Shown here: positions 17,432 through 64,000 of the stretch, in pieces
Layout: each line of letters begins with the position of its first letter
Position numbering within the stretch: the first letter of the stretch is position 1
Origin: Candidatus Binatota bacterium
GTDB taxonomy: Bacteria > Desulfobacterota > Binatia > UBA1149
DNA length: 64,000 nt
Assembly (NCBI GenBank): GCA_012960245.1
Contig: DUBO01000038.1
Span: 10,627-74,626, forward strand
Direction: 5' to 3'
The notes under the pieces: model-generated
Seen by the model: the letters and a program-made list of their open reading frames with translations, nothing else
Told to the model about the DNA's origin: nothing
Databases searched by the model: none
Program-made: the position numbers and the translations under genes

Positions 17432-17789
17432 CCTGTAAGCCTCTCTGTCGGTGGCAACCGTTGCGCTGCGGCTGCTCGCCCATTGGGTATACGCTCAGCC
17501 GTGGCCCTGCAACCGCGACACTTCACCCCCTTATGCAGGGGTCGGGGCCATGCGGCTGATACACAGCCGACGCCTTGCTCTTCAACGAAAAGAAGTCCCT
17601 TTGCCACCCGCTGGCCGCCAGATCCCCCTCCACGAGCTGGCGCCCGTTGACAGGTGCCGGTTGCTGCCGCTCAACTGGACAATGAGCGGGGTCTACGGGG
17701 GCCGAAGCGGGAGGATCTCCAGCCGGCCCTCCCACGGCCCACTGCAAACCAGGCTTGGCAGCAAGCAGCCGGATGCTACGGCAGGTGAA

Positions 17790-17866: not shown

Positions 17867-17882
17867 CGGCACAGCGATTGCA
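17867..17882 (+). promoter_or_regulatory. Sigma-54-type promoter (cGGCAC-agcga-TTGCa) for the FG-GAP/Cys-repeat gene
   Basis: GG-N10-GC spacing. 66 bp upstream of ATG 17948. Confidence 0.5.
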
Positions 17883-17947: not shown

Positions 17948-20900
17948 ATGACCACTGAATACCATTCATCGATTTACCGCAGCGATCCCATGGGCCCAGG
18001 CGCCGCTTGCGTCGCAGTGCGGGGTTTTTCTTTGCTCGCGCTGGCAGTGCTTGCCATCACGCTGACAGCCCAGCAGGCCCAGGCGGTACCGGCCGAGGTC
18101 TCGGCCCAGGCCGTGAGCGGCCACGATTACCTGGGCGGTGGCGCGCTGGCCACCGATTCGGGCCGCGGCGTGGCCGTGGGCGATCTTGACGCTGACGGCT
18201 TTGACGACATCGCCATAGGCGTGCCCGGCAGCGACCACGTGTGCCTTGTACGCGGGCCCATCGCCATGGGAGCAGCGCCCGAAGACGTGAGCGTGCTTTG
18301 CAAAGCCGGCGCCGTCGCGCCCAACGCCTTCCGCATCAACGCACCCACGGCCTTGACGGGCAGCGGCGGTTTTGGCCTGGGCCTTGAGATTGCCGACATC
18401 GACTGCGACGGGCAGAACGACCTCATCATCGGTGACCCACTGGCCGATCCGGTGGCCGGCCTCGCGGGTGGAGTAAAGGTTGATGGCGGTGCCATCCACG
18501 TGCTGCACAAGTCGGCGGGACTTGTGTGGGGACAGGAAATATTTGCCGATAACTGGCGCCTGTACACCGGGGGCAACGGCTACTCGATAATGAGCGGTGG
18601 CGCGCAACTGGAAATGTTCGGCTACCCGGCAGCCGGCGATATAGACAACGACGGACTGGTCGACCTCGTGGTCGGCGCACCCATACACCGCCACGGATTC
18701 GCCCGCGCTGGACGCGTGTACCTGCTTGGAACCGCGGCCGTGGTCGAGTTCAACTTCTGCGCCAACGGCCCCATCAACAATCCCGTCTCCCAGCCCTTGA
18801 GCATCATGGACGGCGCGCCGGCCTGTGGCGGCTCCTGCTCCTGCGTCGCTTCGGCCTGCATCGACATGAAGAAAGACGACGCCTGGTTCGGCCAGGGCAT
18901 TGACGTGGCCGACGTCAATGCCGACGGCATCGACGACCTCGTGGTCGGGTCTCCCAGCGACGGCGTGGCGGTGGAATCGCGCGTGTACATCAAGTACGGA
19001 CCCATAGCGGCTTCGCCCGCGGTCTACCCGGTGGACTTTCCCTCGCCTTATTCCAGCGCCGACAGTTGCATAGGAGACGGCGACGCGGCGTTTGATCGCC
19101 TCGGCACAGACCTGGCCGCCGCCGACTACGACGGTGACGGTAAGCTCGAACTCTACATTGGCGCGCCCTTGTATTCCGGAGGCGGAATGGTCCAGAACGG
19201 CGGCGTCTTTGCGCTGACGGGCGGAAACTACGGCGCCCTGACCACGTCCATATCCACCGCACCCGTGGTCTGGTACGGCAAGGTCAACGACGGTAATCTC
19301 GGCTGGGGCGTAGACCTCGGCGACCTCGATGACGACGGCGCCCTCGATCTCTCGGTTGGCGGCTCGGGCATAGGCGACCCCAACGGCAGCACGCACGTAA
19401 TAAAAGAACCCGCCCCCGACCCCTGCCTGACCCTGGTGTGCAATGACGCCAACGAGTGCACCTCGGACTCCTGCGCGCTGGGCGCCTGCGTGTTCACGCC
19501 GGTGGCCAACGGTACTGCCTGCACCGACGACGGACTTTACTGCACTGGCACCGAGACCTGCCAGGCGGCGGTCTGCACCAGCGCCGGCGACCCCTGCGCG
19601 GGTGGCGCCGAATGCGACGACAGTTGCGACGAAGCAGCTAACAGCTGCGCGGTGGCGGTGAATACAGCCTGCACCAGCGACGGCAACGAATGCACCGACG
19701 ACGCGTGCGACGGCACGGGCGCCTGCGCGCATCCGGCCGTGGCCAACGACACTGTCTGCACCGACGACGGACTTTACTGTACTGGTTCAGAATCCTGCCA
19801 GGCTGGAGCCTGCACCAGCGATGGCGACCCCTGCGTCGGTGGCGCCGAGTGCGCCGACAGTTGCGACGAGGCGGCCAACAGCTGTGACGTGAGTGCGGGA
19901 ACAGCCTGCACGAACGACGGCAACGAATGCACCGACGACCAGTGCGACGGAGCGGGCGCCTGCGCGCATTCGGCCGTAGCCAACGGAACGGCCTGCTCGG
20001 ACGACGGGCTTTACTGCACGGGCACCGAGACCTGCCAGGCCGCGTCCTGCACCAGCGCCGGCGACCCCTGCGCGGGTGGCGCCGAGTGCGCCGACAGTTG
20101 CGACGAGGCGGCCAACAGCTGCGACGTGAGCGCTGGCACCGCCTGCATCGATGACGGCAACGAGTGCACCGACGACGAGTGCGACGGCGCGGGCGCCTGC
20201 GCGCATCCGGCCCTGGCCAACGGAACGGCCTGCTCGGACGACGGGCTTTACTGCACGGGCATTGAGACCTGCCAGGCCGCGGTCTGCACCGGCGCCGGTG
20301 ACCCCTGTTCAGGGCTGGGCGTGTGCTTCAGCTGTGACGAGGCCGCCGATAGCTGCGACGACACCGACGCCGACGGCGACCTGATCTGTGGTCCCGATGA
20401 CAACTGCGCCGCCGAGTACAACCCGGACCAGCTCAACAGTGACTGTCCCCCTGGAGGCACCGACACCGGCTTCGGTGGCATAGACTGCTCGGCTCCCCTG
20501 GGCGCCAACGAAGCGGGCTGCTGTGACGGTGGCGATGTATGCGACGCCTGCCCGGCCAACAACGACAACTCGAAGTGCGACGCCGGCCTGTCGGGCGGCG
20601 AGAGCATCGGGGCCGCAGGAGGCAGCTTCAGCCTCGGTGGCTGTCTAAGCGTAACCATCCCTGCCGGCGCCCTGGCGGCCGACACCAGTATCTCTGTGTC
20701 CACAGGGCTCAACGCTTCGACCAACCCGCTGATAGGCGGCGACCCGATCAAGCTGAAGAAGGCCGGTGGATCGTCAGTTCACAAGTACATAATACTGCCG
20801 CACGGACAGTCATTCCTCGTGCCCATCACGCTGGGATTCTGCTGGGACGACGCCGATAACGATGGCACGGTTGACCTCGGGACCTGTGATCTCGACGCGT

Positions 20901-21820
20901 CGCTGACCTGCGACGACAACGCCGACTGCGGTGCTTTTGCCCCCTGCAACGGTGGCGGGAGCATGGCTGAAAACAACCTGCTGCTGCGCCGCGAGGGCAA
21001 GAACTTTGACTACGCCGGCTTTGGGACTTCGGCGCCCGGCAGTGTCCAGAAATGCGGCGACGCCGAACACCAGAACGTGGGCACCTGCGGGCCCGCCGCG
21101 GCAGTAGCAGACTGCACGGACGCGCCCGGGGTCGACGAAGCCAGCGTGGCCAACTGCTGCGACACGGCCGGCAACTCCTGGCCCTGGCAGACCTGCAACT
21201 TCTCCGAGTACTACTTCGGAGAACTTTCCGGCGACCTTATACCAGGCAAGGGCAGCGAGAAGACCGACTGTCACCTCGAGTGGAGCGTGGTCAATCCTTT
21301 CAACACCGAGGACAAGTACGACAGGAGAGGCCTGCTCAACTACAAGCAGGACTGCACCGATGGTGACGCCAATTGCGACAAGGACGGCGAAGCCAACGGG
21401 GTGTGTATCTTCGAAATCGGCCTTTGCCTGAACGTCGACGACAGTCGCCTGTTCGACAAGAAGACCCTCGACCCGGTCTGCACCCCGACAGCGACCGACC
21501 TGTTCCAACTCAAGAAACCCCGGCCCAACAGTCGCAAGCTGCACGAGGCCGAGGCGGCCGAGGCGCTGCTGGCCGCGGTGATGGAGCTCGACGTGGAGGC
21601 AACGATCGGTGGCCGCAGGCTCAACGAGGTGACCTTCTCGGGTCTCGGCTACGACAACGGCGACGCCTGCACCAATACATTCCAACTCGAGGTGCCGCTC
21701 AACGGACGCTCCAAGGCCAAGGGCAAGCTCAAGGCCGGCGTAGAAACCGTAGCCTCGGAAACCCTGCGCGCAACCAAGGACAAGGACACGCTCAAGTTTA
21801 CCTGTTACAGCAGCGAGTGA
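17948..21820 (+). CDS. Large secreted FG-GAP (integrin-alpha-like) repeat protein with tandem Cys-rich 79-aa repeats and thrombospondin-type-3-like Asp-rich segment
   Basis: Signal peptide (LLALAVLAITLTAQQAQA). >=6 FG-GAP-like units (GDLDADGFDDIAIGVPG, ADIDCDGQNDLIIGDP, GDIDNDGLVDLVVGAP...). Repeats NGTACTDDGLYCTGTETCQAAVCTSAGDPCAGGAECxDSCDEAANSC. Then DTDADGDLICGPDDNC. Confidence 0.8.
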   Translation: MTTEYHSSIYRSDPMGPGAACVAVRGFSLLALAVLAITLTAQQAQAVPAEVSAQAVSGHDYLGGGALATDSGRGVAVGDLDADGFDDIAIGVPGSDHVCLVRGPIAMGAAPEDVSVLCKAGAVAPNAFRINAPTALTGSGGFGLGLEIADIDCDGQNDLIIGDPLADPVAGLAGGVKVDGGAIHVLHKSAGLVWGQEIFADNWRLYTGGNGYSIMSGGAQLEMFGYPAAGDIDNDGLVDLVVGAPIHRHGFARAGRVYLLGTAAVVEFNFCANGPINNPVSQPLSIMDGAPACGGSCSCVASACIDMKKDDAWFGQGIDVADVNADGIDDLVVGSPSDGVAVESRVYIKYGPIAASPAVYPVDFPSPYSSADSCIGDGDAAFDRLGTDLAAADYDGDGKLELYIGAPLYSGGGMVQNGGVFALTGGNYGALTTSISTAPVVWYGKVNDGNLGWGVDLGDLDDDGALDLSVGGSGIGDPNGSTHVIKEPAPDPCLTLVCNDANECTSDSCALGACVFTPVANGTACTDDGLYCTGTETCQAAVCTSAGDPCAGGAECDDSCDEAANSCAVAVNTACTSDGNECTDDACDGTGACAHPAVANDTVCTDDGLYCTGSESCQAGACTSDGDPCVGGAECADSCDEAANSCDVSAGTACTNDGNECTDDQCDGAGACAHSAVANGTACSDDGLYCTGTETCQAASCTSAGDPCAGGAECADSCDEAANSCDVSAGTACIDDGNECTDDECDGAGACAHPALANGTACSDDGLYCTGIETCQAAVCTGAGDPCSGLGVCFSCDEAADSCDDTDADGDLICGPDDNCAAEYNPDQLNSDCPPGGTDTGFGGIDCSAPLGANEAGCCDGGDVCDACPANNDNSKCDAGLSGGESIGAAGGSFSLGGCLSVTIPAGALAADTSISVSTGLNASTNPLIGGDPIKLKKAGGSSVHKYIILPHGQSFLVPITLGFCWDDADNDGTVDLGTCDLDASLTCDDNADCGAFAPCNGGGSMAENNLLLRREGKNFDYAGFGTSAPGSVQKCGDAEHQNVGTCGPAAAVADCTDAPGVDEASVANCCDTAGNSWPWQTCNFSEYYFGELSGDLIPGKGSEKTDCHLEWSVVNPFNTEDKYDRRGLLNYKQDCTDGDANCDKDGEANGVCIFEIGLCLNVDDSRLFDKKTLDPVCTPTATDLFQLKKPRPNSRKLHEAEAAEALLAAVMELDVEATIGGRRLNEVTFSGLGYDNGDACTNTFQLEVPLNGRSKAKGKLKAGVETVASETLRATKDKDTLKFTCYSSE
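19506..20330 (+). repeat. Intragenic near-identical tandem DNA repeats, 237-bp unit (~3.5 copies), encoding the 79-aa Cys-rich repeat
   Basis: gccaacgg/acnnn...tttactgcac unit recurs at ~19506, 19743, 19980, 20217. The ORF track shows near-identical antisense mini-ORFs at 237-bp offsets (19537-19761, 19774-19983, 20011-20220). Confidence 0.8.
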
Positions 21821-27567: not shown

Positions 27568-27596
27568 TTGACATATATACCCCCCGGGGGTATATT
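27568..27596 (+). promoter_or_regulatory. Sigma-70-like promoter (TTGACA -17 bp- TATATT) whose spacer is a perfect 20-bp palindrome ATATACCCCC|GGGGGTATAT, a CsoR-type operator. Implies leaderless or near-leaderless csoR.
   Basis: Read directly at 27568-27596. Palindrome 27576-27595 ends 8 bp before ATG 27603. Confidence 0.65.
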
Positions 27597-27602
27597 CCCG
27601 GC

Positions 27603-27890
27603 ATGGACGATGAGACCCGCAAGAAGGTTCTGACCCGGCTCAACCGGGCCGAGGGGCAGGTGGCGGCCCTGCGGCGCATGGTGGAGCAGGACACCTACTG
27701 CGTGGACGTGCTCACCCAGGTCGCGGCCGCCCAGGGCGCGCTCGGGCGCGCGGGCGAGATGATACTGTCGAACCACATCGAGACCTGCGTCAGCCACGCG
27801 TTTGAAAGCGGCAGCGCCGACGACCGCGCGGCCAAGGTAGACGAGCTGATGGAAGTGTTCTCGCGCTACAGCCGCATAGGGGCGCGCTGA
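27603..27890 (+). CDS. csoR: CsoR/RcnR/FrmR-family metal-sensing transcriptional repressor
   Basis: LTRLNRAEGQVAALRRMVEQDTYCVDVLTQ...NHIETCV: Cys-His-Cys W-X-Y-Z ligand pattern of the CsoR family. ATGA overlap with downstream permease. Confidence 0.8.
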   Translation: MDDETRKKVLTRLNRAEGQVAALRRMVEQDTYCVDVLTQVAAAQGALGRAGEMILSNHIETCVSHAFESGSADDRAAKVDELMEVFSRYSRIGAR

Positions 27891-29086
27891 TGGTTTTCCT
27901 GGCCGAAGCCTGGGGCGTGATGCTCTCGCTGGCACCCTGGCTGCTGCTGGGCGCCGTCGTGGCCGGTCTGCTGCACGTCGCGCTCCCGGCCGGCTTCGTA
28001 CACCGCGAGCTGGGCGGGCGGCTGGGCGTTCTCAAGGCCGTCGCGCTGGGCGTGCCGCTGCCGCTTTGTTCCTGCGGAGTCATCCCCGCCGCGCTGGGGT
28101 TACGTCGCGACGGCGCCGGTCGCGGTGCCACGGTTGGATTCCTGATAAGCACGCCGCAGACCGGTGTTGACTCGGCCCTGGTGAGCGCGTCGTTCCTCGG
28201 CTGGCCCTTTGCCCTGTTCAAGATAGCGGCGGCCGCGGTCACGGGCATAGCCGGCGGTTACCTGGCGGGCGCGGTTTCGCCGGGAGCCGTACAAGGCGAC
28301 GAACAACAGTCGCCCGACGAACAGGCCGAGCGCAGCCTGCGGGGAATGGCGTCACACTCGATCAGTATCCTGCGCACCATATGGCGCTGGATCGCCGTGG
28401 GCGTGCTGGCGTCGGCCGCAATCTCGACCTGGGTACCGCCGGGCTCACTGGCCGGGCTGGGCAGCATGGCCTCTATGCTGGCGGTGCTGGCCGTGTCGGT
28501 GCCGCTGTACGTGTGCGCGACCGGCTCGGTGCCCATAGCCGCGGCCCTGGTTGCCGGTGGCCTGCCCGCGGGCAGCGCGCTGGTATTTCTCATGGCTGGC
28601 CCGGCCACCAACGTGGCCACCATCGGTGCCGTCTACCGGGCGCTGGGTGGCCGCACGCTGGCCGTGTACCTGGGCACCATCGTTGTCGGATCCATTGCAG
28701 CCGGCCTGCTGTTCGACTCGCTGCTGCCCGTGGGAGCCGCTGCCCTGCCCCACCACGGCAACGGGCCGGCCTGGTGGGAACTGGGCTCGGCGTTGCTGCT
28801 CACGGGAGTGCTCGCGTGCTTTGCCGTGGGCGAACTGCGCACGGCGCTTACCCGGGCCATGACCTCGCGCAGGACGGCCGACCTCGAGCTGACCGTCGAA
28901 GGCATGACCTGCAACAACTGCCGCACGCGACTGGAGACAGCGCTGCTGGCGACACCGGGCGTCAAATCGGCGGTCGTCGTGCTCGAGCCGGGCGGCGCCA
29001 GCGTATGGGGCGATGTCGACGAGCAAAAGGTCCGCGAAGCGATAAGCGAGGCCGGCTACACCCCCCTGCCGGCCACGGGTGACTGA
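27890..29086 (+). CDS. ArsP_1/DUF318-type permease fused to C-terminal heavy-metal-associated (HMA) domain
   Basis: Polytopic membrane protein with LPLCSCGVIP and VPLYVCATGSVP motifs (ArsP/DUF318 family). C-terminal GMTCNNC HMA motif. Confidence 0.65.
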   Translation: MVFLAEAWGVMLSLAPWLLLGAVVAGLLHVALPAGFVHRELGGRLGVLKAVALGVPLPLCSCGVIPAALGLRRDGAGRGATVGFLISTPQTGVDSALVSASFLGWPFALFKIAAAAVTGIAGGYLAGAVSPGAVQGDEQQSPDEQAERSLRGMASHSISILRTIWRWIAVGVLASAAISTWVPPGSLAGLGSMASMLAVLAVSVPLYVCATGSVPIAAALVAGGLPAGSALVFLMAGPATNVATIGAVYRALGGRTLAVYLGTIVVGSIAAGLLFDSLLPVGAAALPHHGNGPAWWELGSALLLTGVLACFAVGELRTALTRAMTSRRTADLELTVEGMTCNNCRTRLETALLATPGVKSAVVVLEPGGASVWGDVDEQKVREAISEAGYTPLPATGD

Positions 29087-55029: not shown

Positions 55030-55728
55030 CTACTGGCACACGCAGAATGCCGCCACTGGATCGCCTACGAACGTGCACTGCTTGGTGGTATCGGCGCAAT
55101 CGCCACCGCAGGTGGGAGCGCCTGACTGTTCGCAGGGATCGCTCTGCTCGGGCTCGCATCGGCAAGCCAGGGTACCGGCTATATTCGTGCACACGTCGGT
55201 CGGATTGGGGCAGTCGCCGTTACAGGTCGGGGCACCGGACTGTTCGCAGGGGACCGGCTGGTCGAACACCTTCCAGGCGGGCGTGCACATCTTGGTGGTC
55301 CTGAAACCGGCGATCTCGCGCTGGCCAAACTGGTCAACCACGTCCTGGGCACTGGGCGGCATCGCGCCAGTAGGATCCTTGGGGCAGCGGATCTTGTAGC
55401 AGAGAAAGTCGTTGGTCAGGTCCTGGCCAACCACGTCCTCGTGCGGGGCATCGCGCTTGTTGTTGGGCTGCATGATGCGATCTTTATTGACCGGCAGGCA
55501 GAACTCCTTGCTCTTGACCATTATCCTGCAGCCGGCTTCGCTCGGGTACATGGATTGGTCAGAGTTTGTGATGAGATCGGCTACCGCCGAGTACCTGTGA
55601 GAATCCTTGATCTTGTAGCACTTCAGGTGGTCGTTGACGTTCTGGGCCTGCGAGATTGCGGGCAGCGCCAGGGCCAGGAAAGCTACGGTTACTGTTGCTG
55701 TTACTATTGCTGTGATTGCCTTGTTCAT
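55030..55728 (-). CDS. Small secreted Cys-rich protein with C-terminal 2x 6-Cys module (PCEQSGAPTCxGDC...C.C) shared with the BNR protein
   Basis: Signal peptide MNKAITAIVTATVTVAFLALALPAISQA. KCYKIKD / LCYKIRCPKDP motifs. C-terminal tandem Cys module. Confidence 0.7.
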   Translation of the reverse strand: MNKAITAIVTATVTVAFLALALPAISQAQNVNDHLKCYKIKDSHRYSAVADLITNSDQSMYPSEAGCRIMVKSKEFCLPVNKDRIMQPNNKRDAPHEDVVGQDLTNDFLCYKIRCPKDPTGAMPPSAQDVVDQFGQREIAGFRTTKMCTPAWKVFDQPVPCEQSGAPTCNGDCPNPTDVCTNIAGTLACRCEPEQSDPCEQSGAPTCGGDCADTTKQCTFVGDPVAAFCVCQ

Positions 55729-55773
55729 GTCGATTCCTCCGTCGGCGGCGCGGGTTGAGCCCGCGCCGGCATG

Positions 55774-55789
55774 CCCCTGTCAAAGCAAC
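55774..55789 (-). promoter_or_regulatory. Sigma-54 promoter, exact consensus TGGCAC-agcag-TTGC (read on minus strand)
   Basis: Plus strand gcaactgctgtgccaa. 45 bp upstream of start 55728. Confidence 0.6.
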
Positions 55790-55828
55790 TGCTGTGCCAA
55801 TCGGTAACGGCCCGGAAACCCTGTAAAC

Positions 55829-55865
55829 ACGGGCTCTAACCGGGGCTGTGCTGCTAACGTAAGTT
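55829..55865. promoter_or_regulatory. Copy A of the recurrent upstream element: CCGGGGCTGTG-N12-GTTAGCGCTCGAAG, with internal GCTAAC-gtaa-GTTAGC palindrome
   Basis: Identical 10-nt and 14-nt blocks to copy B at 62218-62253. ~65 bp upstream of the -24 box. Confidence 0.55.
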
Positions 55866-55930
55866 AGCGCTCGAAGGGCGGTAGCGTGTGGGTGGGTTTG
55901 CAGCGGAGCACCCGGATGCGCCGCCGGTCT

Positions 55931-56986
55931 CTAGAGCGAGAAAATACCCAGTAGCAGGCCACAACCGGTGAGAGCCATCAGGGGGCCATCACAGGTATGC
56001 GGGCTCACGGCTTCGGCAAGCGTCAGCCCAAGGGGAATAACGGCCACCGCCACCAGGAATTGTTCGGGCGTAAACACCGGGACGGCCGACAGGAACTGGT
56101 ATCCACACAGCACCACGACCGAAACGATAAACACCGTCGCACTACCCTCCAGGGATCGTACGAACTGCCCACTCCAGATACGCCCGTTGTGCCACAGGGC
56201 CTTGGTGCGGTACTTGTGCTTGCCGAAACGGATACCCACCGGTTCGGCGAGGCCGTCACCAAATTCGTTTATCAGTTGCGGCACGAGAACGATGAAGGGA
56301 TTGGCGACCAGCGCCATGAAAGGCAGGTATACGGCGAAACGAAACACGTCCTCGAGCATGTCATAACGCAGGGAATATGGCCTATCCTCCAGCCGATCCC
56401 ACGAAACGAACGCGTACCGGAACAACGCGACCCGGCGCCGAACGCGATGATACTCGAGCCCTATGGTTTTCAACTGGCCGAGGCAGAACAGGAACGCTAT
56501 GTCGATAATCACCTTGTCGCCGCTTACTATGAGAAGCGGGATCACGAAGGCCGAGAGCTTCTTTACGGGGCGAAGAATCAGTTTGCGGACGTAATTGATC
56601 CGAACTCGGTGCCGCATCACGAGCCATGATGCGAAGAGTTTACCCGCGACTTCGACTACGATCGAGATGCCAAAAAAAGCCATTGCCGCCGTGTTAAGTG
56701 CCGGGAGTACGCCGACAGCCCCCAGTACCCCAAGCGTGGCGGCTACAGCCAGGTAAAACGGACCAAGTACGGCTACGAATCGGTCCTCGCCCCTCCAGTC
56801 ATAGGCCTCGTTCTCCAGCCCGTAAGGATCGGCATACAGGCGGGCGAAATAGCCGTCCCGCGACTGGTGTACTGTCTCCTGGGATACCGGCCCTTCCCGC
56901 GTGATCGCCACCGCGGCCAAAGCGGCCCCCGGATACAGTGCCGCGTCGTTACCGGTCGGCTCGTTGGCAGTGCTGGTCCTTGTCAT
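55931..56986 (-). CDS. Integral membrane protein, CTP-dependent polyprenol/phytol-kinase-like (dolichol kinase/CDS superfamily)
   Basis: C-terminal FGDGLAEPVGIRFGKHKY...LEGSATVFIVS resembles the DGxAxxxGxxxGxxK...EGSxxxF motif of the CTP_transf_1/phytol-kinase family. ~7 TM. Confidence 0.45.
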   Translation of the reverse strand: MTRTSTANEPTGNDAALYPGAALAAVAITREGPVSQETVHQSRDGYFARLYADPYGLENEAYDWRGEDRFVAVLGPFYLAVAATLGVLGAVGVLPALNTAAMAFFGISIVVEVAGKLFASWLVMRHRVRINYVRKLILRPVKKLSAFVIPLLIVSGDKVIIDIAFLFCLGQLKTIGLEYHRVRRRVALFRYAFVSWDRLEDRPYSLRYDMLEDVFRFAVYLPFMALVANPFIVLVPQLINEFGDGLAEPVGIRFGKHKYRTKALWHNGRIWSGQFVRSLEGSATVFIVSVVVLCGYQFLSAVPVFTPEQFLVAVAVIPLGLTLAEAVSPHTCDGPLMALTGCGLLLGIFSL

Positions 56987-57074: not shown

Positions 57075-57089
57075 CTGCAACTCGTGTGC
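57075..57089 (-). promoter_or_regulatory. Sigma-54 promoter, exact consensus TGGCAC-acgag-TTGC (minus strand)
   Basis: Plus strand gcaactcgtgtgcca. 89 bp upstream of start 56986. Confidence 0.6.
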
Positions 57090-57133
57090 CAGTAGGAAAT
57101 TGGCACAAAAACGGGCTCCCGCCGAGACCGGAT

Positions 57134-57153
57134 GCAAACCAGGGTTAGCCCTA
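57134..57153. promoter_or_regulatory. Copy D of the recurrent upstream element (aaaccaGGGTTAGCCctagg)
   Basis: Matches the aaacccaGGTTAGCGC core of copies B and C. 53 bp upstream of the -24 box. Confidence 0.4.
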
Positions 57154-57233
57154 GGAGGCCCGGACCGCCTTCCTGGCTTAGCACTGGCCGACGTGGAGGC
57201 GCCGCTTAGCGGGCCCAGCTGGAGGATAGAAAA

Positions 57234-57458
57234 ATGATAAAACTCTGTTTCTGCGTACACCGGTTGCCGTCGCTCACGCGCGAGCAGTTCCAGGATTACT
57301 GGCACTCGACCCACGCGGCGCTGTTAAAGCGCCACGCCGAGGTCCTCGGCACAGAACAGGCGCAGGCTGCCGTCGCAGAGTTGATCGAAGACGAGCATCG
57401 ATTTGCAGACCTGTCGCGCTCGCCCATATTCCTGGCCGAAGAACGGCAGATCCTGTAG
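57234..57458 (+). CDS. EthD/Dabb-like small alpha+beta-barrel protein (hypothetical)
   Basis: MIKLCFCVHRLPSLTREQFQDYWHSTHAAL resembles the EthD N-terminus. 74 aa. RBS ggagg. Confidence 0.45.
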   Translation: MIKLCFCVHRLPSLTREQFQDYWHSTHAALLKRHAEVLGTEQAQAAVAELIEDEHRFADLSRSPIFLAEERQIL

Positions 57459-57484: not shown

Positions 57485-58285
57485 ATGGACTACGAGCAGA
57501 TCACCTACGAAGTACGCGACCAGGTGGCACTGATCACGCTTGACCGGCCCGACAAGCTCAACGCGTGGACGCCACAGATGAGCGAGGAGCAGGCCCACGC
57601 CGTCGCGCGCGCCAACGCCGACAACGCTGTGGGTGCCATCGTCACGACCGGTGCCGGCCGCGGTTTTTGCGCTGGCGCCGACATGGGCGACACCTTCCAG
57701 TCGCGCATAGACGGTGTTGACCCCGGCCACAACACCCAGGACGGATCGGGAGGAATGCCCGCAGGCCTCGACTGGGTGGCGCTGGTGCGCGAGTCCAAGC
57801 CCATGATTGCCGCGGTCAACGGCGCGACCGTCGGCATCGGGCTTACCATGCTGCTGCCCTTCGACGTCATACTGGCGTCGGACAAGGCGCGCCTGGGCAT
57901 GGGCTTCATCAAGATGGGGCTGGTGCCCGAGCTGGCCAGCACCCATTTCCTGGTGCAGCGCATGGGCTTTGGCCGCGCATCGGAGATGTGCCTTACAGGT
58001 CGCCTTTACAAGGCCGACGAGGCACTGGAGGCCGGCCTGGTGGACCGGGTCGTGGCTCACGACGACCTCGTGGCCGCCGCCCTGCAACTGGCCGGCGAGA
58101 TCGCGGCCAACCCCGTGCCGCAGTTGCTCATGACCAAGCGGCTACTGACCGAAAACGGCAGCGCCACCGACCTCACCCTGGTGCAGGAGTCGGAGAGCGC
58201 CTTGCTGCGCGAGTGCTGGAAGACACCCGAGCACGCCGAGGCGGTGGCGGCTTTTATCGAGAAACGACCACCGCGTTTTCGCTAG
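57485..58285 (+). CDS. Enoyl-CoA hydratase/isomerase (crotonase) family protein
   Basis: ITLDRPDKLNAW ... GAGRGFCAGADM oxyanion-hole motifs. Confidence 0.85.
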   Translation: MDYEQITYEVRDQVALITLDRPDKLNAWTPQMSEEQAHAVARANADNAVGAIVTTGAGRGFCAGADMGDTFQSRIDGVDPGHNTQDGSGGMPAGLDWVALVRESKPMIAAVNGATVGIGLTMLLPFDVILASDKARLGMGFIKMGLVPELASTHFLVQRMGFGRASEMCLTGRLYKADEALEAGLVDRVVAHDDLVAAALQLAGEIAANPVPQLLMTKRLLTENGSATDLTLVQESESALLRECWKTPEHAEAVAAFIEKRPPRFR

Positions 58286-58342
58286 CCCGACCATCCACCA
58301 TTTTCAGACAAGGACGTCGTAAGAGACCCCGTCCAGCTGCAG

Positions 58343-61300
58343 CTACTGGTCCAGCTGGCGAACCCTGTGTATTACCGCTTCGATTGTCACCGGCACGGGA
58401 CAGTTAACAATATGCCGAGCGTCGCTTGGCGAATTCGGATGCTCAAAATCATAGTTGTCAGACCCCACATTTGGCGGTGGCGGGAATTCAAGGACTTCCA
58501 ATTTACCCTCGGCCCTGAGCCGCTGAATCTGCTTGACCCCTTTAAGGACCTCGCTCGCCGGCTCCTTCCAGTGAGCAAAACCGATGTGCCACATCGGACT
58601 GTAATCGTCCTCTGGCCTAAAGTAGGAGGGCACTCCCACCTGGCTGCCGAACGGGCCACCACCCAGGAATCCAAAACCGTCGCTTGGCGTCGGTGGATAG
58701 GTTGGATCTATCGGCGCTGGGGGCAGCGACTGGATCAGGGGAACTCCGACGCTTCCAAGGTTCTTATACATTGGTACATAGGGGACTCCCATCGCCCTTG
58801 CCGGACCAAATGGATAGGTGTCCAGGACTATGTAGTAGGGAAGATAATCACCTTCTCCCGCCCAAGCCTTGTGAAGCTTGAAGGTGATCGACGGATCTGG
58901 TCCGACCGTGTCCAGTGCCAGCACATGCCCCGATGCGTCCCTGTCACCCCAGAATTCACCGTTGTAAAAACAAGTCGAGTTGGGAGGTTCATCTGGAAAA
59001 CTGACACAACTCAGGTCAATCCGATTGTGATGCCATTCCTCGTCGCCCCACTTTGCAAACACGGCATTAACGATAACATCCTGCCCGTCAATCGTGACTC
59101 GACGCAAAGGCGAATACGTATTCAGGTCATCAACGTCTGGAATTAAATCCGGATTCTTGCAGGGTCTTCCCGAACCGGAATCGATACCATCAGACACCCT
59201 GCAAGCCGGCGAGGCCCATATCGGATTGGGCACGTTCCCGTAAAACGTCCAGTGACCCGTAACTGGATCAATGGTTGCATCCCCGGTAGCCGCTATTGGC
59301 GTGCCGGTTAATTTACCAGCCCAGGCCAGGCCCATTTCCTCGGCCAGGGCTTCGTCGCTGATGTCGTGCAGGAAGAACCATACGGGGGTCAGTACGCCGC
59401 CGTCGTCGTTCGTTCCCTGCATCAGCGGGAAGGTAATGGTACCGCGTTCGTTGGGCTGCGGGTCAAGGGCGTCGCCGAGCGGAATATCCCTTATGTCGTC
59501 TAACTCGCCGATTACCGCCCCATCCACCCAGATATCCACAGGGTCAACCTGCGGTCCGTATTCGCCAACAGCGTCTCCGGTTCTGTATGTAGGCAGTGCG
59601 TGGGTGTCCACGTAGCTTACCCCGTCCCACGAGGGGATAGGTGTCGGCATGACCAGGGTCTGCCCCGGATGCTCAATATCCCAGCGCAACAGCATGGCGT
59701 GGTCCTCGTGCTGCGTGTTGTGGCAATGCTCCATGAAGGTGCCCGCGAACTCCCGGAAGCGAAGTGCGATCTCCACCATCACCCCACTGTCGGCCTGTGG
59801 TCCGAGCCGGTACACGTCCTTGCGAGCCCACTTTTCCCACTCGGGCGGCTCCTGGCCGTCACGTCTCAGTATGATCCCCTCCTCAAAGTGGATGTGTATC
59901 GGGTGGCTCCAGGTTCCGCTGTTGAGAAGGCGCCAGACCTCCAGCCCACCGGAATTTTTCTCGGGAGCCGCAGATAGACGGCGGGGGTCCATTCCGAACC
60001 CCTTGCCGCCATCGGTCTCTATGACCCAGGGGCGATCGTCGGTGGGCTGCCTCTCAAATTCAAAGGTGCGGTGAAGAGCCGCGTCCAGCTCTGCCTGCGC
60101 GGGCATCTGGATGGGGATCATCTTCTGCCCGCCGGCCACGTAGTCCATTGGATCAAGACTGTTGTCGACCCCGGCGTACTCGGTAACACGGAACTCCATG
60201 AATTTACCTACAACCGGGTCACCGTCGATCCAGCGGTCGGCAATGCCATCGGGGGGAACCGTGTCGTCGATGGTAACCGGTGCGTAGGCTCCGCTTACGA
60301 TATCGGCCAGGGGAATCACTTCGTCGGTGACTTGCCCGTTCTTGTGTTGCAGCAGGTTGACCAGGTACAGCTTGTCACCCGGTTCGAAGTTGGCAAAGTC
60401 GATGATGACGTCGTAGCGTTCGGCTATGCCGAGGGTCGGCAGCTCGCCGTTACTGAACTCCACGGCGTGCTCCATGATGTTGCCGTCGTTGGCAACCATG
60501 TGGAACGGGACCGGGTTGCCGGCCTCGTCGACCAGCGCCAGCTTGAAGTAGCGAGATACCGAGGCATTCAGGACGCGGAAGCGGTACCGGCGGGCACGAA
60601 CGTCGAAGTAAGGCTTGTACAGCCAGTTAACGGTCATAACGTCGCCGAGAAAGCCTTTCTGGTTGAAGGGGTTAAAACACAACTGCCCGTCACCATCAAA
60701 GGCTTTCTCTGCCAGCATCAGGTTGACGTCGTAATCGCGGTTGCCCCAGGGCAGCGCGGATCCACTGGGCAACCTCAGGTTGATGCCGTCATTGACGGAT
60801 TCGTTGCCGCGATCGAGTGAACTGTAATAGTTCATCATCGCGGCGCTGCCCTTGTAGACGTTCTGGGCAGTGAAATCGAGCATGTGATCGTGGAACCAGT
60901 GGGTGCTCATGGTCTCGTGCCAGTCGCCCTTGATCCGCTTTATGCCTCCGTTGCCCATGGGCATCCCTGCCCTTTTATCCCTCTTATTCGTATTGATGGA
61001 GTCGTGTCCTGCGAGCACCATCGGCCACCTGTAGTCGTAGAACTGGCCGGGAAAGAAAAACGCGTTGGCGAACCCGTCGCTCTCAGCCGGGTTATGGCCG
61101 TTGTGCTCGTGGGTGGTCAGCGTGTGAACACCGAAACCACGGTTCTCGGCGACGTCGATCGGTAACGCATTGTAGTGGCGCATTACCAGGGGCTCGCCAT
61201 AACGCGCGGTGAGCAGCTTGGGGGGAAAAGTTCCGTCGAAAGTCCACACCGCGTCCGGATCCTGCAAAGGCATGCTGGCATGAAACCGGACCTCGATTCC

Positions 61301-62083
61301 CGACGTCGTGCCATCGGATCCAGCTGGTTCCGCGGTTGAATGATACAGTCCTGTGGGCCCGAATTCACCGTGCCTGTAGCGATGCCTCTGAGCTCTATCA
61401 CGCAGGCCGCGATTCTCCCGACCACCGGTTGTCGCAGTCTTGAAGTAAACCCTGGGCTTGAACTCATCCCACCGCTGGTGTGCCCATCCTTCCCCAGGCG
61501 GTCGTCCTTCGATCGGGGGGTCGTCAAGATCGCGGCCCAACCATGATTCAATCTTCGACTCCCACGGATTCTCGTCCGAGGTATTCGCCTTGCGCTTGGG
61601 GATAGGCCATACCCGGGCTTTCAAAAACTTATCCAGTTTTACTGAACGCGGATAAGCCTGGGGGTTGGCTGGTTTGGGTAGCCGTTTATGTTTGGGGCTA
61701 TCTTCGGCATGAATTCCACGCTTTGTGGTCCCAAATTCTTCCAATCGCAACATTTTCTGGCTGAAAGGCGTTGCGCCAAAAAGCGGACTCGGTGGGTAAT
61801 CGGTTGGCACGTTGAAGGTGCCAGAATCCCGCTGGGCAGTCACCGGTATGGCATTCTGCTCGCGGGTGTCTTCGGGGGTTCCAGTCAAGCCCCCCTCAAA
61901 ACTCCCCTCGTTTGCCTCGGGCAAACCCTCTGGCAGATCTCCCACGATCGGACCCGCACACGCCGAAGGATCTCCGGAAGGCGGGCACTGGGCATGCAGC
62001 GTCGGTGGGAAAAAACACGCAATGGCCAGAAAAAATAACGAACAATACAACCCTGGAAAACAATACCTACTAACTCGTCTCAT
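58343..62083 (-). CDS. Large secreted multicopper oxidase (1246 aa) with ~480-aa C-terminal extension beyond the T1 copper site
   Basis: Signal peptide. Four Cu-ligand motifs in order: HTLTTHEHNGH, WFHDHMLD, HPIHIHFEEG, HCHNTQHEDHAM(L). Confidence 0.85.
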   Translation of the reverse strand: MRRVSRYCFPGLYCSLFFLAIACFFPPTLHAQCPPSGDPSACAGPIVGDLPEGLPEANEGSFEGGLTGTPEDTREQNAIPVTAQRDSGTFNVPTDYPPSPLFGATPFSQKMLRLEEFGTTKRGIHAEDSPKHKRLPKPANPQAYPRSVKLDKFLKARVWPIPKRKANTSDENPWESKIESWLGRDLDDPPIEGRPPGEGWAHQRWDEFKPRVYFKTATTGGRENRGLRDRAQRHRYRHGEFGPTGLYHSTAEPAGSDGTTSGIEVRFHASMPLQDPDAVWTFDGTFPPKLLTARYGEPLVMRHYNALPIDVAENRGFGVHTLTTHEHNGHNPAESDGFANAFFFPGQFYDYRWPMVLAGHDSINTNKRDKRAGMPMGNGGIKRIKGDWHETMSTHWFHDHMLDFTAQNVYKGSAAMMNYYSSLDRGNESVNDGINLRLPSGSALPWGNRDYDVNLMLAEKAFDGDGQLCFNPFNQKGFLGDVMTVNWLYKPYFDVRARRYRFRVLNASVSRYFKLALVDEAGNPVPFHMVANDGNIMEHAVEFSNGELPTLGIAERYDVIIDFANFEPGDKLYLVNLLQHKNGQVTDEVIPLADIVSGAYAPVTIDDTVPPDGIADRWIDGDPVVGKFMEFRVTEYAGVDNSLDPMDYVAGGQKMIPIQMPAQAELDAALHRTFEFERQPTDDRPWVIETDGGKGFGMDPRRLSAAPEKNSGGLEVWRLLNSGTWSHPIHIHFEEGIILRRDGQEPPEWEKWARKDVYRLGPQADSGVMVEIALRFREFAGTFMEHCHNTQHEDHAMLLRWDIEHPGQTLVMPTPIPSWDGVSYVDTHALPTYRTGDAVGEYGPQVDPVDIWVDGAVIGELDDIRDIPLGDALDPQPNERGTITFPLMQGTNDDGGVLTPVWFFLHDISDEALAEEMGLAWAGKLTGTPIAATGDATIDPVTGHWTFYGNVPNPIWASPACRVSDGIDSGSGRPCKNPDLIPDVDDLNTYSPLRRVTIDGQDVIVNAVFAKWGDEEWHHNRIDLSCVSFPDEPPNSTCFYNGEFWGDRDASGHVLALDTVGPDPSITFKLHKAWAGEGDYLPYYIVLDTYPFGPARAMGVPYVPMYKNLGSVGVPLIQSLPPAPIDPTYPPTPSDGFGFLGGGPFGSQVGVPSYFRPEDDYSPMWHIGFAHWKEPASEVLKGVKQIQRLRAEGKLEVLEFPPPPNVGSDNYDFEHPNSPSDARHIVNCPVPVTIEAVIHRVRQLDQ

Positions 62084-62161
62084 AATTTATCCCCCTGCAG
62101 AGATGAAAAAAAACATGGCTAACTTAACTAAAATCCCCGTCAAGGGTGTAATCCAGAACAA

Positions 62162-62176
62162 GCAACTTGTGTACCA
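62162..62176 (-). promoter_or_regulatory. Sigma-54-like promoter TGGtAC-acaag-TTGC (minus strand) for the multicopper oxidase
   Basis: Plus strand gcaacttgtgtacca. GG-N10-GC preserved, one mismatch in the -24 box. 79 bp upstream of start 62083. Confidence 0.45.
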
Positions 62177-62217
62177 AGCTGAAAATGCCTGGCCCCACAG
62201 TCAATACAGGATGAGGT

Positions 62218-62253
62218 CGGGGCTGTGTTGTAAACCCAGGTTAGCGCTCGAAG
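62218..62253. promoter_or_regulatory. Copy B of the recurrent upstream element: TCGGGGCTGTG-N12-GTTAGCGCTCGAAG
   Basis: Identical 10-nt and 14-nt blocks to copy A. 64 bp upstream of the -24 box. Confidence 0.55.
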
Positions 62254-62398
62254 TCAAAAAGTCTGCACTCGAAGGTCAAAGGTCTGCAGATAACCGCAGC
62301 AAGGATGCAACAGCTTGCGCAGTGGCGTCGCAAGCCGGCAGCATAAAGAAAAATTGTAGAGATCCTCAACAGTGGCCGGTTGGGTGCCTACGCCCACA

Positions 62399-62475
62399 TG
62401 GGGGGGGATTCGCCCTTACGTGGGCGGTCAGCGCTGGATCCCCCCCCCCGAATGGGTTTGTGTGTGGGGGGGGGG
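62399..62475. repeat. Three long homopolymer tracts (G9, C10, G10) within 77 bp in the Sco-fusion/MCO intergenic region
   Basis: catGGGGGGGGG(62399-62407) ... gatCCCCCCCCCC(62440-62449) ... tgtgtGGGGGGGGGG(62466-62475). Confidence 0.8.
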
Positions 62476-62499
62476 CTGACGACCTCTGCGTCCTCCCGG

Positions 62500-63810
62500 T
62501 TATTTTACCTTCACCGGGACAGCCACGACCTGTGTTCTCCCGGATTCAAAGGAAAGCGTCATATTGATGGTCTGACCTGCTTCCGCTCGCCGGACCGGTT
62601 CCATGAGCATAAGATGCTTGCCTCCCGGGGCAAGCTTCGCCTGCCCCCCCGGGGGCACCAGGAGTTGTTCGACCTCCCTCATTCTCATCAACCCGTCGAC
62701 AACCGCCATTTCGTGCACCTCTATGCGACCGAAGGCCGGGGACTCTACCTTGACCAAGGAAACAGCCTCCTGGCCGACGTTAACAAGGGTCATATATCCG
62801 GCGTTAGCCGGGGCCCTGGCGTCTGCCTCGCGCACCCAGGCATCCATGACCGCCAGCACGTCTCCTTCCGGCTCGGCGTCGGCAACCGGAGCTGCCTCCT
62901 CCCGCAGCTCGCCCATCGAAGCAAGGTAGACAAGCAGGTCATCGGCCTCCTGCCTGTTCAGCCGCATATTCGGCATGACCAGATTCCCCCACTCTTCGAG
63001 CATGGCTACCGCGATCGGGTCCTCGTCAGCAATCATTTTGTCTGGTGCCTGCAGCCATCCAAGAAGCCACTGGCGATCGCGGCGCCCTGTTACTCCCATG
63101 AGATCCGGCCCGAGTGCGCCGGGTCGGGTCTCGCCGTCGACCGTGTGACAAACTGAACAACGAGTCCGAAACAACTGCTCTCCCGCCGACATGGGCCGCA
63201 GCTCAGGCGCCTTGTGATAACTCTGCTTGGAAAGAGGAGGGCACTTGGGGCACAGGCCATTCAGCTGAGACGCAAGAATGTAGGGGTTTTCTGTCGGCGC
63301 TCGCTTCATCCACTGCCCGGTAGCCTGGTTGCCGATCATCATGTTCAAGTTGTGATCGCCACTTCCGTCCTGGATCTCCTCCACGTACAGGCCGAGCTTT
63401 CTACGTAGCAGCGTGATGTCTTCTTCGTTACCGGTGAAGAAATCCCAGTGCGCACCGAATCTATCCTTGTACTCGCTCAGTATCGGCGGCTGGTCGTGTT
63501 CAGGGTCGATAGAGATCGAATAAAAAAAGATATCGTCGCCAATTCGATCACCCAGTATGTCCTGGACCTTTTTCAGCTGGGCCGTCTCAAGGGGGCAACT
63601 GTCCGGACAGCTGGTGAAGATAAAGTTAACCGCGACGATCTTTCCCTCGATAAGGTCGTCGAAAAACCGCACCTGTTCTCCGTCCTGGTTGGTCAGTTCG
63701 ACGTTTGGAAAATAGTTCCTGCCCCATGACGCGGCCACGGCAGACGAATAGAAAGCCAGCACCAAGGGCAGCACGATAAACCACCGGCAAAATTTCAAGC
63801 TACTTCTCAC
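62500..63810 (-). CDS. Sco1/SenC - cytochrome c - PCu(A)C fusion copper-chaperone protein, membrane-anchored
   Basis: N-terminal TM. FIFTSCPDSCP (Sco CxxxC). CSVCH haem-c motif. C-terminal GGKHLMLMEP (PCuAC H/M motif). Start placed at GTG 63810 (RBS aaagggg), since the upstream ORF extension lies in AT-rich promoter-like sequence. Confidence 0.75.
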   Translation of the reverse strand: MRSSLKFCRWFIVLPLVLAFYSSAVAASWGRNYFPNVELTNQDGEQVRFFDDLIEGKIVAVNFIFTSCPDSCPLETAQLKKVQDILGDRIGDDIFFYSISIDPEHDQPPILSEYKDRFGAHWDFFTGNEEDITLLRRKLGLYVEEIQDGSGDHNLNMMIGNQATGQWMKRAPTENPYILASQLNGLCPKCPPLSKQSYHKAPELRPMSAGEQLFRTRCSVCHTVDGETRPGALGPDLMGVTGRRDRQWLLGWLQAPDKMIADEDPIAVAMLEEWGNLVMPNMRLNRQEADDLLVYLASMGELREEAAPVADAEPEGDVLAVMDAWVREADARAPANAGYMTLVNVGQEAVSLVKVESPAFGRIEVHEMAVVDGLMRMREVEQLLVPPGGQAKLAPGGKHLMLMEPVRRAEAGQTINMTLSFESGRTQVVAVPVKVK

Positions 63811-64000
63811 GCGAGAAGAGATACCCCTTTTTCGATTCAATACAACTAGTAGACTACATTTATCAGCGAACCGGACCATCGCCGGCACACCGTCCGATTG
63901 GCACGGAAATCAGGGCAACGAGCCCTGGTACGTCAAAGATGCGGCCGGCAATTTTTCCGAGTTTTTCTCGGGCATGGATCGCATCCTCGACGACGACGGC

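Follow-up and report, generated by a model that had tools for sequence, protein, structure and literature searches.

Upstream of four sigma-54 promoters in a stretch of Candidatus Binatota DNA, a sequence element recurs that an earlier note had described as about 35 nt long, set at a fixed distance from each promoter, and a candidate binding site of a shared activator. The question raised by this locus is whether the element is the enhancer (UAS) of a single enhancer-binding protein (bEBP), or whether its recurrence has another origin. Here, we define the repeated unit, describe its placement and its conservation in relatives and beyond, and weigh this reading against the alternatives. The whole stretch of DNA analyzed, 64 kb in length, is referred to as the window. 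We conclude that the recurrent element is probably the UAS of one bEBP of a marine Candidatus Binatota bacterium.

Four sigma-54 promoters and the genes behind them

The host is a marine member of Candidatus Binatota (UBP10), and related contigs come from marine metagenomes. Proteins 96% identical to the product of gene A belong to MAGs that NCBI names candidate division UBP10 or Candidatus Binatota, and that other depositors named Deltaproteobacteria. Four genes of the window are considered here, named after the promoter in front of them:

17948..21820, plus strand: gene C, 1290-aa secreted protein with FG-GAP and Cys-rich repeats
55030..55728, minus strand: gene A, 232-aa secreted Cys-rich protein, no family assignment
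55931..56986, minus strand: gene D, 351-aa membrane protein, no family assignment
58343..62083, minus strand: gene B, 1246-aa secreted multicopper oxidase with DUF7482

Sequence searches of Pfam (E ≤ 10), NCBIfam and PDB returned nothing useful for proteins A and D, and exact-protein look-ups of the gene A product and of P0161 gave no match. The oxidase gene B is preceded by a gene encoding a SCO1/cytochrome c/PCuAC fusion. The block formed by the SCO1, oxidase and enoyl-CoA hydratase genes has a GC content of 0.52-0.61, compared to 0.65. A CsoR-type repressor is encoded elsewhere in the window.

Each of the four genes is preceded by a predicted promoter of the -24/-12 type:

17867..17882, plus strand: sigma-54 promoter C, CGGCACagcgaTTGCA, separated from dyad C2 by 64 nt
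55784..55799, minus strand: sigma-54 promoter A, TGGCACagcagTTGCT, separated from dyad A by 53 nt, invariant in relatives as an 18-nt block
57076..57091, minus strand: sigma-54 promoter D, TGGCACacgagTTGCA, separated from dyad D by 42 nt
62161..62176, minus strand: sigma-54 promoter B, TGGTACacaagTTGCT, separated from dyad B by 53 nt

Two of these promoters match TGGCAC-N5-TTGCW perfectly and the other two with one mismatch. All four are intergenic and correctly oriented, and the start codon follows 45-79 nt past the predicted transcription start. The other one-mismatch matches to the sigma-54 pattern in the window (at 1010, 12749, 27930, and 35798) have no dyad upstream, and those at 12749 and 27930 lie within or at the end of a coding sequence.

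The recurring unit is a 16-bp dyad

When the four upstream regions were aligned in promoter orientation, the core common to all of them was found to be a 16-bp dyad, GCTAAC-N4-GTTAGC. Its variants follow G[CTA][TA]AAC-N4-[GC]TT[AG]GC, with half-sites of the form G[CTA][TA]AAC and a symmetry of the 6-4-6 type, which is perfect in A and carries one to three mismatches in the other copies. The dyads and the elements around them are as follows (no strand is assigned unless given):

17744..17759: predicted UAS dyad C1, GCAAACcaggCTTGGC, centre at about -142, 43 nt distal of C2
17787..17802: predicted UAS dyad C2, GAAAACccagCTTAGC, centre at about -99, inverted relative to A, B, and D
55841..55876: copy A block pair, CGGGGCTGTG, 12 nt, GTTAGCGCTCGAAG, comprising dyad A and flanks common to B only
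55853..55868: predicted UAS dyad A, GCTAACgtaaGTTAGC, perfect palindrome GCTAAC-gtaa-GTTAGC, centre at about -88 from the predicted start
55896..55901, minus strand: candidate distal half-site GCAAAC, 33 nt upstream of dyad A, conserved in A-type relatives (weak evidence)
57134..57149: predicted UAS dyad D, GCAAACcaggGTTAGC, centre at about -77
57177..57210: two CTTAGC hexamers (57177-57182 and 57205-57210), 33 and 61 nt distal of dyad D, candidate auxiliary half-sites
62218..62253: copy B, containing both blocks of copy A
62230..62245: predicted UAS dyad B, GTAAACccagGTTAGC, centre at about -88
62247..62288: 21-nt tandem duplication, CTCGAAGTCAAAAAGTCTGCA / CTCGAAGGTCAAAGGTCTGCA, distal of dyad B

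All sequence strings quoted in the earlier note are present in the window. The two blocks that it had reported as identical between copies A and B, CGGGGCTGTG and GTTAGCGCTCGAAG, occur exactly twice each in a window-wide search with 0 mismatches, and are 12 nt apart in both copies. Copies B, C, and D lie where they had been placed, and copy A indeed contains the perfect inverted repeat; copy A itself, however, had been assigned to 55829-55865 and is shifted by 12 nt from there.

The notion of one element per promoter holds in part. Two full dyads, 43 nt apart, were found at promoter C only. The regions of A, B, and D carry, apart from their single dyad, weaker half-site-like elements of doubtful significance, situated 33 nt (A and D) or 42 or 21 nt (B) distal of the main dyad. 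In B, the degenerate half-site GTCTGC recurs every two helical turns as part of the tandem duplication.

The degenerate pattern GNWAAC-N4-STTRGC gave six matches at five sites in the 64-kb window versus 0.20 expected, and none of 100 shuffled sequences reached that number, although this pattern was built from the same sites that were then counted with it. All five sites lie upstream of the four intergenic -24/-12 promoters, and none was found elsewhere in the window. When the palindrome of copy A alone served as the model, a dyad was located 35-70 nt upstream of three promoters with up to two mismatches, or of all four with up to three. In 300 Markov simulations of this coupling, the means were 0.017 (up to two mismatches) and 0.09 (up to three), with maxima of 1 and 2, respectively. 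The hexamer STTAGC, moreover, is depleted in the window (13 occurrences versus 38.7 expected), and 8 of the 13 lie inside the four promoter regions.

The dyads are spaced by helical turns

The gap between the dyad and the TGG of the promoter was found to be 42 nt for D, 53 nt for both A and B, 64 nt for C2, and 107 nt for C1. With 10.75 bp per turn, these gaps correspond to 3.91, 4.93, 4.93, 5.95, and 9.95 turns. Since they differ by steps of about 11 nt, one face of the helix is kept, and the distance is quantised by turns rather than fixed, as had been proposed before. The earlier estimate of 53-65 bp between the TTAGC core and the GG of the promoter has to be revised as well: we measured 66 nt for A and B, 55 nt for D, and 66-70 nt for C.

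At promoter C, the half-site on the promoter side is the better one, an orientation opposite to that in A, B, and D, as had been noticed previously. At the level of sequence, the placement of the dyads agrees with the dependence on the helix face and the independence of orientation that are typical of a UAS. The sites of bEBPs are typically positioned 70-150 bp upstream of a -24/-12 promoter, and the dyad centres at about -77, -88, -88, -99, and -142 are within this range.

No match to the IHF consensus WATCAANNNNTTR with one mismatch or less was detected between UAS and promoter in any of the four regions. A T-rich block resembling CCYGTnTTTac is common to A, B, and D and lies 18-19 nt from the dyad; it might contribute to bending or represent a third weak site.

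Conservation in relatives

Both the dyads and the promoters are kept in relatives with proteins 95-96% identical to those of the window. The A-type promoter with its dyad was present in every orthologous contig, including those retrieved by protein only (L081-L085 and L128-L130). It was also found in front of a gene for a 273-aa CARDB paralogue, which has different neighbouring genes and belongs to the same MAG lineage (L086-L088). Across 11 distinct orthologous or paralogous A-type sequences, the half-sites of dyad A are invariant and the spacer is variable; changes at the final position of the spacer go along with changes at the position that opens the right half (TTAC-G, TTAA-C, TTAG-G). 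Dyad D is unchanged in five relatives (L081, L100, L110, L115, and L128), dyad B is identical in L138 and L139, and dyads C1 and C2 are both identical in L141, whose protein is 95% identical. In the distal element of D, the first hexamer changes from GCTAAG to GCAAAC in relatives, which is another allowed half-site.

The whole intergenic regions of these close relatives are 86-94% identical, and conservation therefore separates the dyad from its surroundings only weakly, leaving a shallow footprint. Among more distant homologues, those of gene A at 48% and 33% identity (L131 and L134) have no promoter and no dyad, and the homologue of gene C at 72% identity (L140) has neither. The expectation that orthologous genes carry the same element was thus borne out in close relatives and failed at these three levels of identity. 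In approximately 291 kb of partly redundant DNA of the Binatota lineage, all matches to the dyad precede a sigma-54 promoter by 42, 53, 64, or 107 nt, with one weak orphan as the exception. The association with promoters that the earlier note had put forward was thus seen in the window and in the related DNA alike.

The same dyad in unrelated bacteria

A scan of metagenome contigs for the dyad together with the promoter yielded 39 loci, 14 of which are of the Binatota A or D type. Because the search pattern demanded both elements, the evidence on conservation and spacing that these loci provide is partly circular. The scan also revealed a second, unrelated cluster, with gaps of 63-65 nt and an extended palindrome, ACT-GCTAAC-N4-GTTAGC-AGT, the extension of which was absent from the search pattern. 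At four of these loci (L091, L099, L118, and L119), the downstream gene encodes a conserved membrane protein of about 545 aa, which in L118 matches the YeiH family (PF03601). A bEBP gene is close by on the divergent side at L091, L092/L126, L099, and L118. At L118, it follows a gene for a Tll0287-type histidine kinase, and its product has the domain order REC-AAA+(GAFTGA/GSFTGA)-HTH_8. The five YeiH-linked regulators, all of the NtrC type, belong to a single orthologous family, in which the recognition region (GNVSEAARQSGLSRVALQKI) is conserved.

Like the Binatota loci, the YeiH loci carry a 6-4-6 dyad, GCTAAC-N4-GTT(A/T)GC, upstream of a sigma-54 promoter. Their spacing of 63-65 nt agrees with the 64 nt of C2 and exceeds that of A/B and D by one or two turns. 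The two groups differ in that the YeiH loci belong to unrelated hosts (GC content 0.48-0.65), have another target gene, and encode the regulator alongside; in addition, they have an extended palindrome (ACT...AGT) and an AT-rich linker. We infer that the regulator adjoining the YeiH-type loci binds the dyad. Since the same dyad occurs at sigma-54 promoters beside NtrC-type genes, it is plausible that GCTAAC-N4-GTTAGC is a bEBP recognition sequence in its own right. This kinase/regulator dyad system is not described in the sigma-54 literature that we examined (a Desulfovibrio regulome, a two-component regulator map, and a cross-phylum regulon comparison).

Search for the activator

In agreement with the earlier note, which had placed the activator outside the window, no bEBP signature (GAFTGA, ESELFGH, Walker A) was detected when the window was scanned for motifs; an RpoN box was not found in it either. 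The loci of the Binatota lineage that were fetched also lacked a bEBP signature, including the 10 kb that adjoin the window on its right, which were reached via a contig with a 100%-identical SCO1 protein. We assume that both sigma-54 and the activator are present in this organism.

The four upstream regions were also compared with the consensus sites of NtrC, NifA, GlrR, CbrB, and LuxO, and no match was found. The NorR core GT-N7-AC, which is uninformatively short, matched once in A (GTTAGCAGCAC) and once in B (GTTTACAACAC), in each case across the right half of the dyad, and did not match in C or D. Neither the sigma-54 literature named above nor Binatota genomics provided a matching motif or regulon, and the genomic survey of the Binatota makes no mention of sigma factors, RpoN, or two-component systems.

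These results bear on the question of whether the dyad might bind some other regulator (a repressor, anti-activator, or architectural protein, for instance) that governs the four promoters jointly, with the true enhancer located elsewhere or less conserved. A 6-4-6 dyad fits many helix-turn-helix dimers, none of the loci has a linked bEBP gene, and three of the four promoters have a single strong site. Moreover, an AraC-family gene adjoins the D promoter region in relatives without the oxidase island; in L110, it stands in place of the SCO1-oxidase-enoyl-CoA hydratase block. Repressors of sigma-54 promoters, however, usually act over the -24/-12 element, whereas the dyads, at -77 to -142, occupy the classical enhancer zone. 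A regulator of this kind would also have to be reconciled with a spacing that keeps helical phase, with the presence of the same dyad beside NtrC-type regulator genes in unrelated bacteria, and with the four-way alignment, in which no further conserved dyad is visible. We therefore regard it as unlikely that the dyad serves a regulator other than a bEBP.

A promoter module common to A and B

The A and B regions align without gaps over 93 nt with 69% identity, from 8 nt upstream of the dyad through the end of the promoter, and directly outside this module the identity is at chance level. Within the 53-nt linker, 32 positions match versus 13.6 by chance, and the maximum in 5000 shuffles was 26. 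The region of D aligns with A and B apart from a deletion of 10-11 nt in the linker. Since the flanks belong to this 93-nt shared module, the element of about 35 nt consists of the dyad plus flanks that only A and B have in common. Its recurrence is thus upheld, and its size is not: the unit is the 16-bp dyad.

It could be argued from this alignment that A, B, and D are copies of one duplicated module, in which the shared bases reflect descent and not a binding site, all the more so as the oxidase block is a lower-GC, strain-variable island. Descent would account for the flanks, but not for the dyad as the part common to all four regions. Promoter C cannot be aligned with the others beyond the dyads and the -24/-12 element, and yet it has two dyads, one of them inverted. 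Among relatives, furthermore, the half-sites stay fixed while the spacer changes, the deletion in D amounts to about one helical turn, and the same dyad occurs in unrelated organisms. A mere relic of promoter duplication is accordingly a very unlikely source of the dyad, and the additional similarity between A and B more likely reflects common descent of the promoter module.

The history of the oxidase gene is of interest in this respect. Its homologues were found at 80 loci in many phyla, with no more than 73% identity, and a sigma-54-like site was located upstream in 8 of 69. As a test of promoter conservation, these loci were discarded as uninformative, since the promoter is host-specific. 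In L100, a different SCO/oxidase pair lies upstream of D. Given homologues of this kind in many phyla, the small number of sigma-54-like sites, and the low-GC, strain-variable island, the oxidase looks to have been acquired horizontally, with a host-type promoter in front. The shared module probably illustrates how this horizontally acquired island joined the regulon.

The least tenable explanation, a dispersed repeat of the REP/MITE type or a transcribed hairpin (terminator or small-RNA element) that lies near promoters by accident, could draw on the perfect palindrome of copy A, located 63 nt downstream of the gene D stop codon and folding as RNA at -9.2 kcal/mol, but is highly improbable and already largely refuted, because the 64-kb window contains no more than five copies, each at a sigma-54 promoter, and the roughly 291 kb of related DNA a single orphan, and because B, C, and D do not form a dyad hairpin. 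An RNA element was also rejected on the grounds that the dyads have no T-run or predicted terminator and that the window has no Rfam match. Since only copy A can fold as a dyad hairpin, the symmetry acts at the level of DNA, for a dimeric protein.

A proposed mechanism

A shared activator-binding site, as envisaged in the earlier note, is supported by the symmetry of the dyad, its occurrence in the window at sigma-54 promoters only, the phasing, the inversion at C, and the conservation. The dyads thus constitute a well-supported putative enhancer, to which a bEBP is predicted to bind. According to this reading, a dimer with a Fis-type helix-turn-helix would bind to each dyad, whose half-site centres are separated by 10 bp. 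The AAA+ hexamer could then assemble from dimers that occupy the main site and, at a distance of three or four turns, the weaker sites, and the spacing quantised by 11 bp would hold this hexamer on the face of the promoter. Looping of the 42-64-nt linker would allow the hexamer to meet the sigma-54 holoenzyme, and ATP hydrolysis would open the promoter.

In this scheme, an activator whose gene lies elsewhere in the genome would sense a single signal and co-induce four genes, namely those for the secreted multicopper oxidase, the secreted Cys-rich protein, the FG-GAP/Cys-rich surface protein, and the membrane protein. Oligomerization, looping, and the common signal are inferred here.

Comparison with known systems

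The best-known enhancer of this kind is that of NtrC at glnAp2 in enteric bacteria, where dyad sites for a dimeric protein with a Fis-type helix-turn-helix lie upstream of the -24/-12 promoter. It comprises two sites about three helical turns apart, at -108 and -140, and acts by DNA looping and an AAA+ hexamer; either orientation works, but the correct helix face is needed. The Binatota dyads share this classical enhancer architecture. In contrast to glnAp2, the sequence TGCACC-N5-GGTGCA is absent from the four Binatota regions, the sites are nearer to the promoter (-77 to -99 versus -108 and -140), and three of the four promoters have a single full dyad.

Sigma-54-dependent control of multicopper oxidases has precedents. 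In Pseudomonas putida GB-1, MnxR, which acts with MnxS1 and MnxS2, is a sigma-54-dependent response regulator needed for the activity of large secreted multicopper oxidases. This system belongs to another phylum and concerns other oxidases, and we know of no defined UAS for MnxR that could be compared with the dyad.

CorR, a sigma-54-dependent regulator of Myxococcus xanthus, governs an operon for a multicopper oxidase in which four putative sigma-54 promoters are described (PMC3707914). As described there, the CorSR-curA system resembles the Binatota loci in combining a sigma-54-dependent response regulator with a multicopper oxidase, cell-envelope proteins, and several sigma-54 promoters per cluster. 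The two differ in that corS and corR are inside the regulated operon, whereas the Binatota loci have no regulator in reach; in the consulted part of that report (PMC3707914), the promoters are predicted and a UAS is not mentioned. A further point of likeness is that Binatota MAGs are labelled 'Deltaproteobacteria' by some depositors. By analogy, CorSR may be considered the closest functional precedent, which does not imply a copper signal for the Binatota.

Significance

The mechanism proposed here is not new; what we describe is a predicted enhancer and a small regulon of classical architecture in an uncultured phylum. For the Binatota, which are globally distributed, nothing on transcriptional control was found in the literature examined. 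The dyad provides a concrete regulatory code, which ties genes of unassigned role to a multicopper oxidase and suggests that the four genes act together outside the cell.

One could go further and picture an orphan bEBP of marine Binatota that runs a lineage-specific extracellular programme of a multicopper oxidase, secreted Cys-rich proteins, an FG-GAP surface protein, and the uncharacterised membrane protein, which new genes, including the SCO1-oxidase island, join by capture of a portable 93-nt module of UAS and sigma-54 promoter, with a family of DNA-binding domains reading GCTAAC-N4-GTTAGC across phyla. This is a tentative extension that we consider possible at best. If it were true, the dyad would be a transferable regulatory code for predicting regulons in uncultured bacteria.

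The loci may also illustrate a route by which a horizontally acquired oxidase is placed under the control of its host. In complete MAGs, the dyad can serve as a search pattern for the remaining members of the regulon and for its activator.

Gene A family and leader

Gene A, which encodes a secreted Cys-rich protein, belongs to a small family in which the promoter, the signal peptide and the N-terminal half are conserved, and the Cys-rich C-terminus is variable.

Members of the gene A family
Window 55030-55728: gene A, 232 aa
Contig L086, 10001-10822: 273 aa, with CARDB
Contig L128, 3400-4311: 303 aa

When the L128 member was compared with gene A, the promoter region (approximately 89% identity) was found to be more similar than the protein (67-69% identity). 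A 9-bp GC-rich stem-loop (55746-55768, minus-strand transcript; -21.5 kcal/mol, z = -2.5) is located directly before the ribosome-binding site, in the 45-nt leader predicted for gene A; its sequence is not the same in relatives.

Surroundings of genes B and D

The multicopper oxidase (gene B) lies in a block of lower GC content (0.52-0.61; 57485-63888), together with a SCO1/cyt c/PCuAC gene and a gene for an enoyl-CoA hydratase. This block is strain-variable: in one relative (L110), its place is taken by a gene for an AraC-family regulator, and in another (L100), the SCO/oxidase pair upstream of gene D, which encodes a membrane protein, is a different one. Homologues of the multicopper oxidase were found across many phyla, with at most 73% identity. 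Between the SCO1 stop codon and the predicted activator site of gene B (UAS B), homopolymer runs (G8, C10, G10) and a short CA repeat were observed (62407-62475). Three assemblies (the window, L138 and L139) differ from one another in the lengths of these tracts alone, a variation that could reflect either assembly noise or slippage-prone DNA. Divergent from gene D, an EthD-domain ORF (57234-57458) encodes 74 aa, compared to 96-121 aa in relatives (L081, L128), and may be truncated in the window.

Other matches and repeats

Only one match to the pattern of the dyad, the 16-bp palindrome predicted to be the activator site, is not followed by a sigma-54 promoter. This match, GAAAACCCCTGTTGGC (L138:6329-6344, equivalent to L139:3550-3565), is located between two convergent genes, approximately 5 kb to the right of the window, and probably arose by chance. 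The dyad search also returned, as 3-mismatch noise, a DNA repeat of approximately 190 bp within the gene for a 933-aa BNR/Asp-box repeat protein (24539-27340).

Repeat copies in the BNR/Asp-box gene
25967: variant copy, GCTGTCGCTTGTCAGC
26150, 26357, 26549, 26732: GCTGTCGGTTGTCAGC

The window also contains a separate sigma-70-type metal-responsive unit (27575-29086). In this unit, the palindrome ATATACCCCCCGGGGGTATAT lies ahead of a gene for a metal-sensing repressor of the CsoR/RcnR type (27603-27890), after which comes a gene for an ArsP-type permease that has an HMA domain.

The extended dyad in unrelated contigs

In unrelated metagenome contigs, the dyad takes the form ACT-GCTAAC-N4-GTTAGC-AGT and precedes sigma-54 promoters by 63-65 nt.

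Extended-dyad loci
L118, 2872-2967
Also L091, L092/L126, L099, L119, L116, L108 and L096

A conserved membrane protein of approximately 545 aa is encoded downstream in L091, L099, L118 and L119; a match to the YeiH family (PF03601) was obtained for the copy in L118. An NtrC-type response-regulator gene was found near the extended dyad in five loci; in L118, it follows a divergent gene for a Tll0287-sensor histidine kinase. The extended-dyad loci appear to constitute an uncharacterised two-component regulon.
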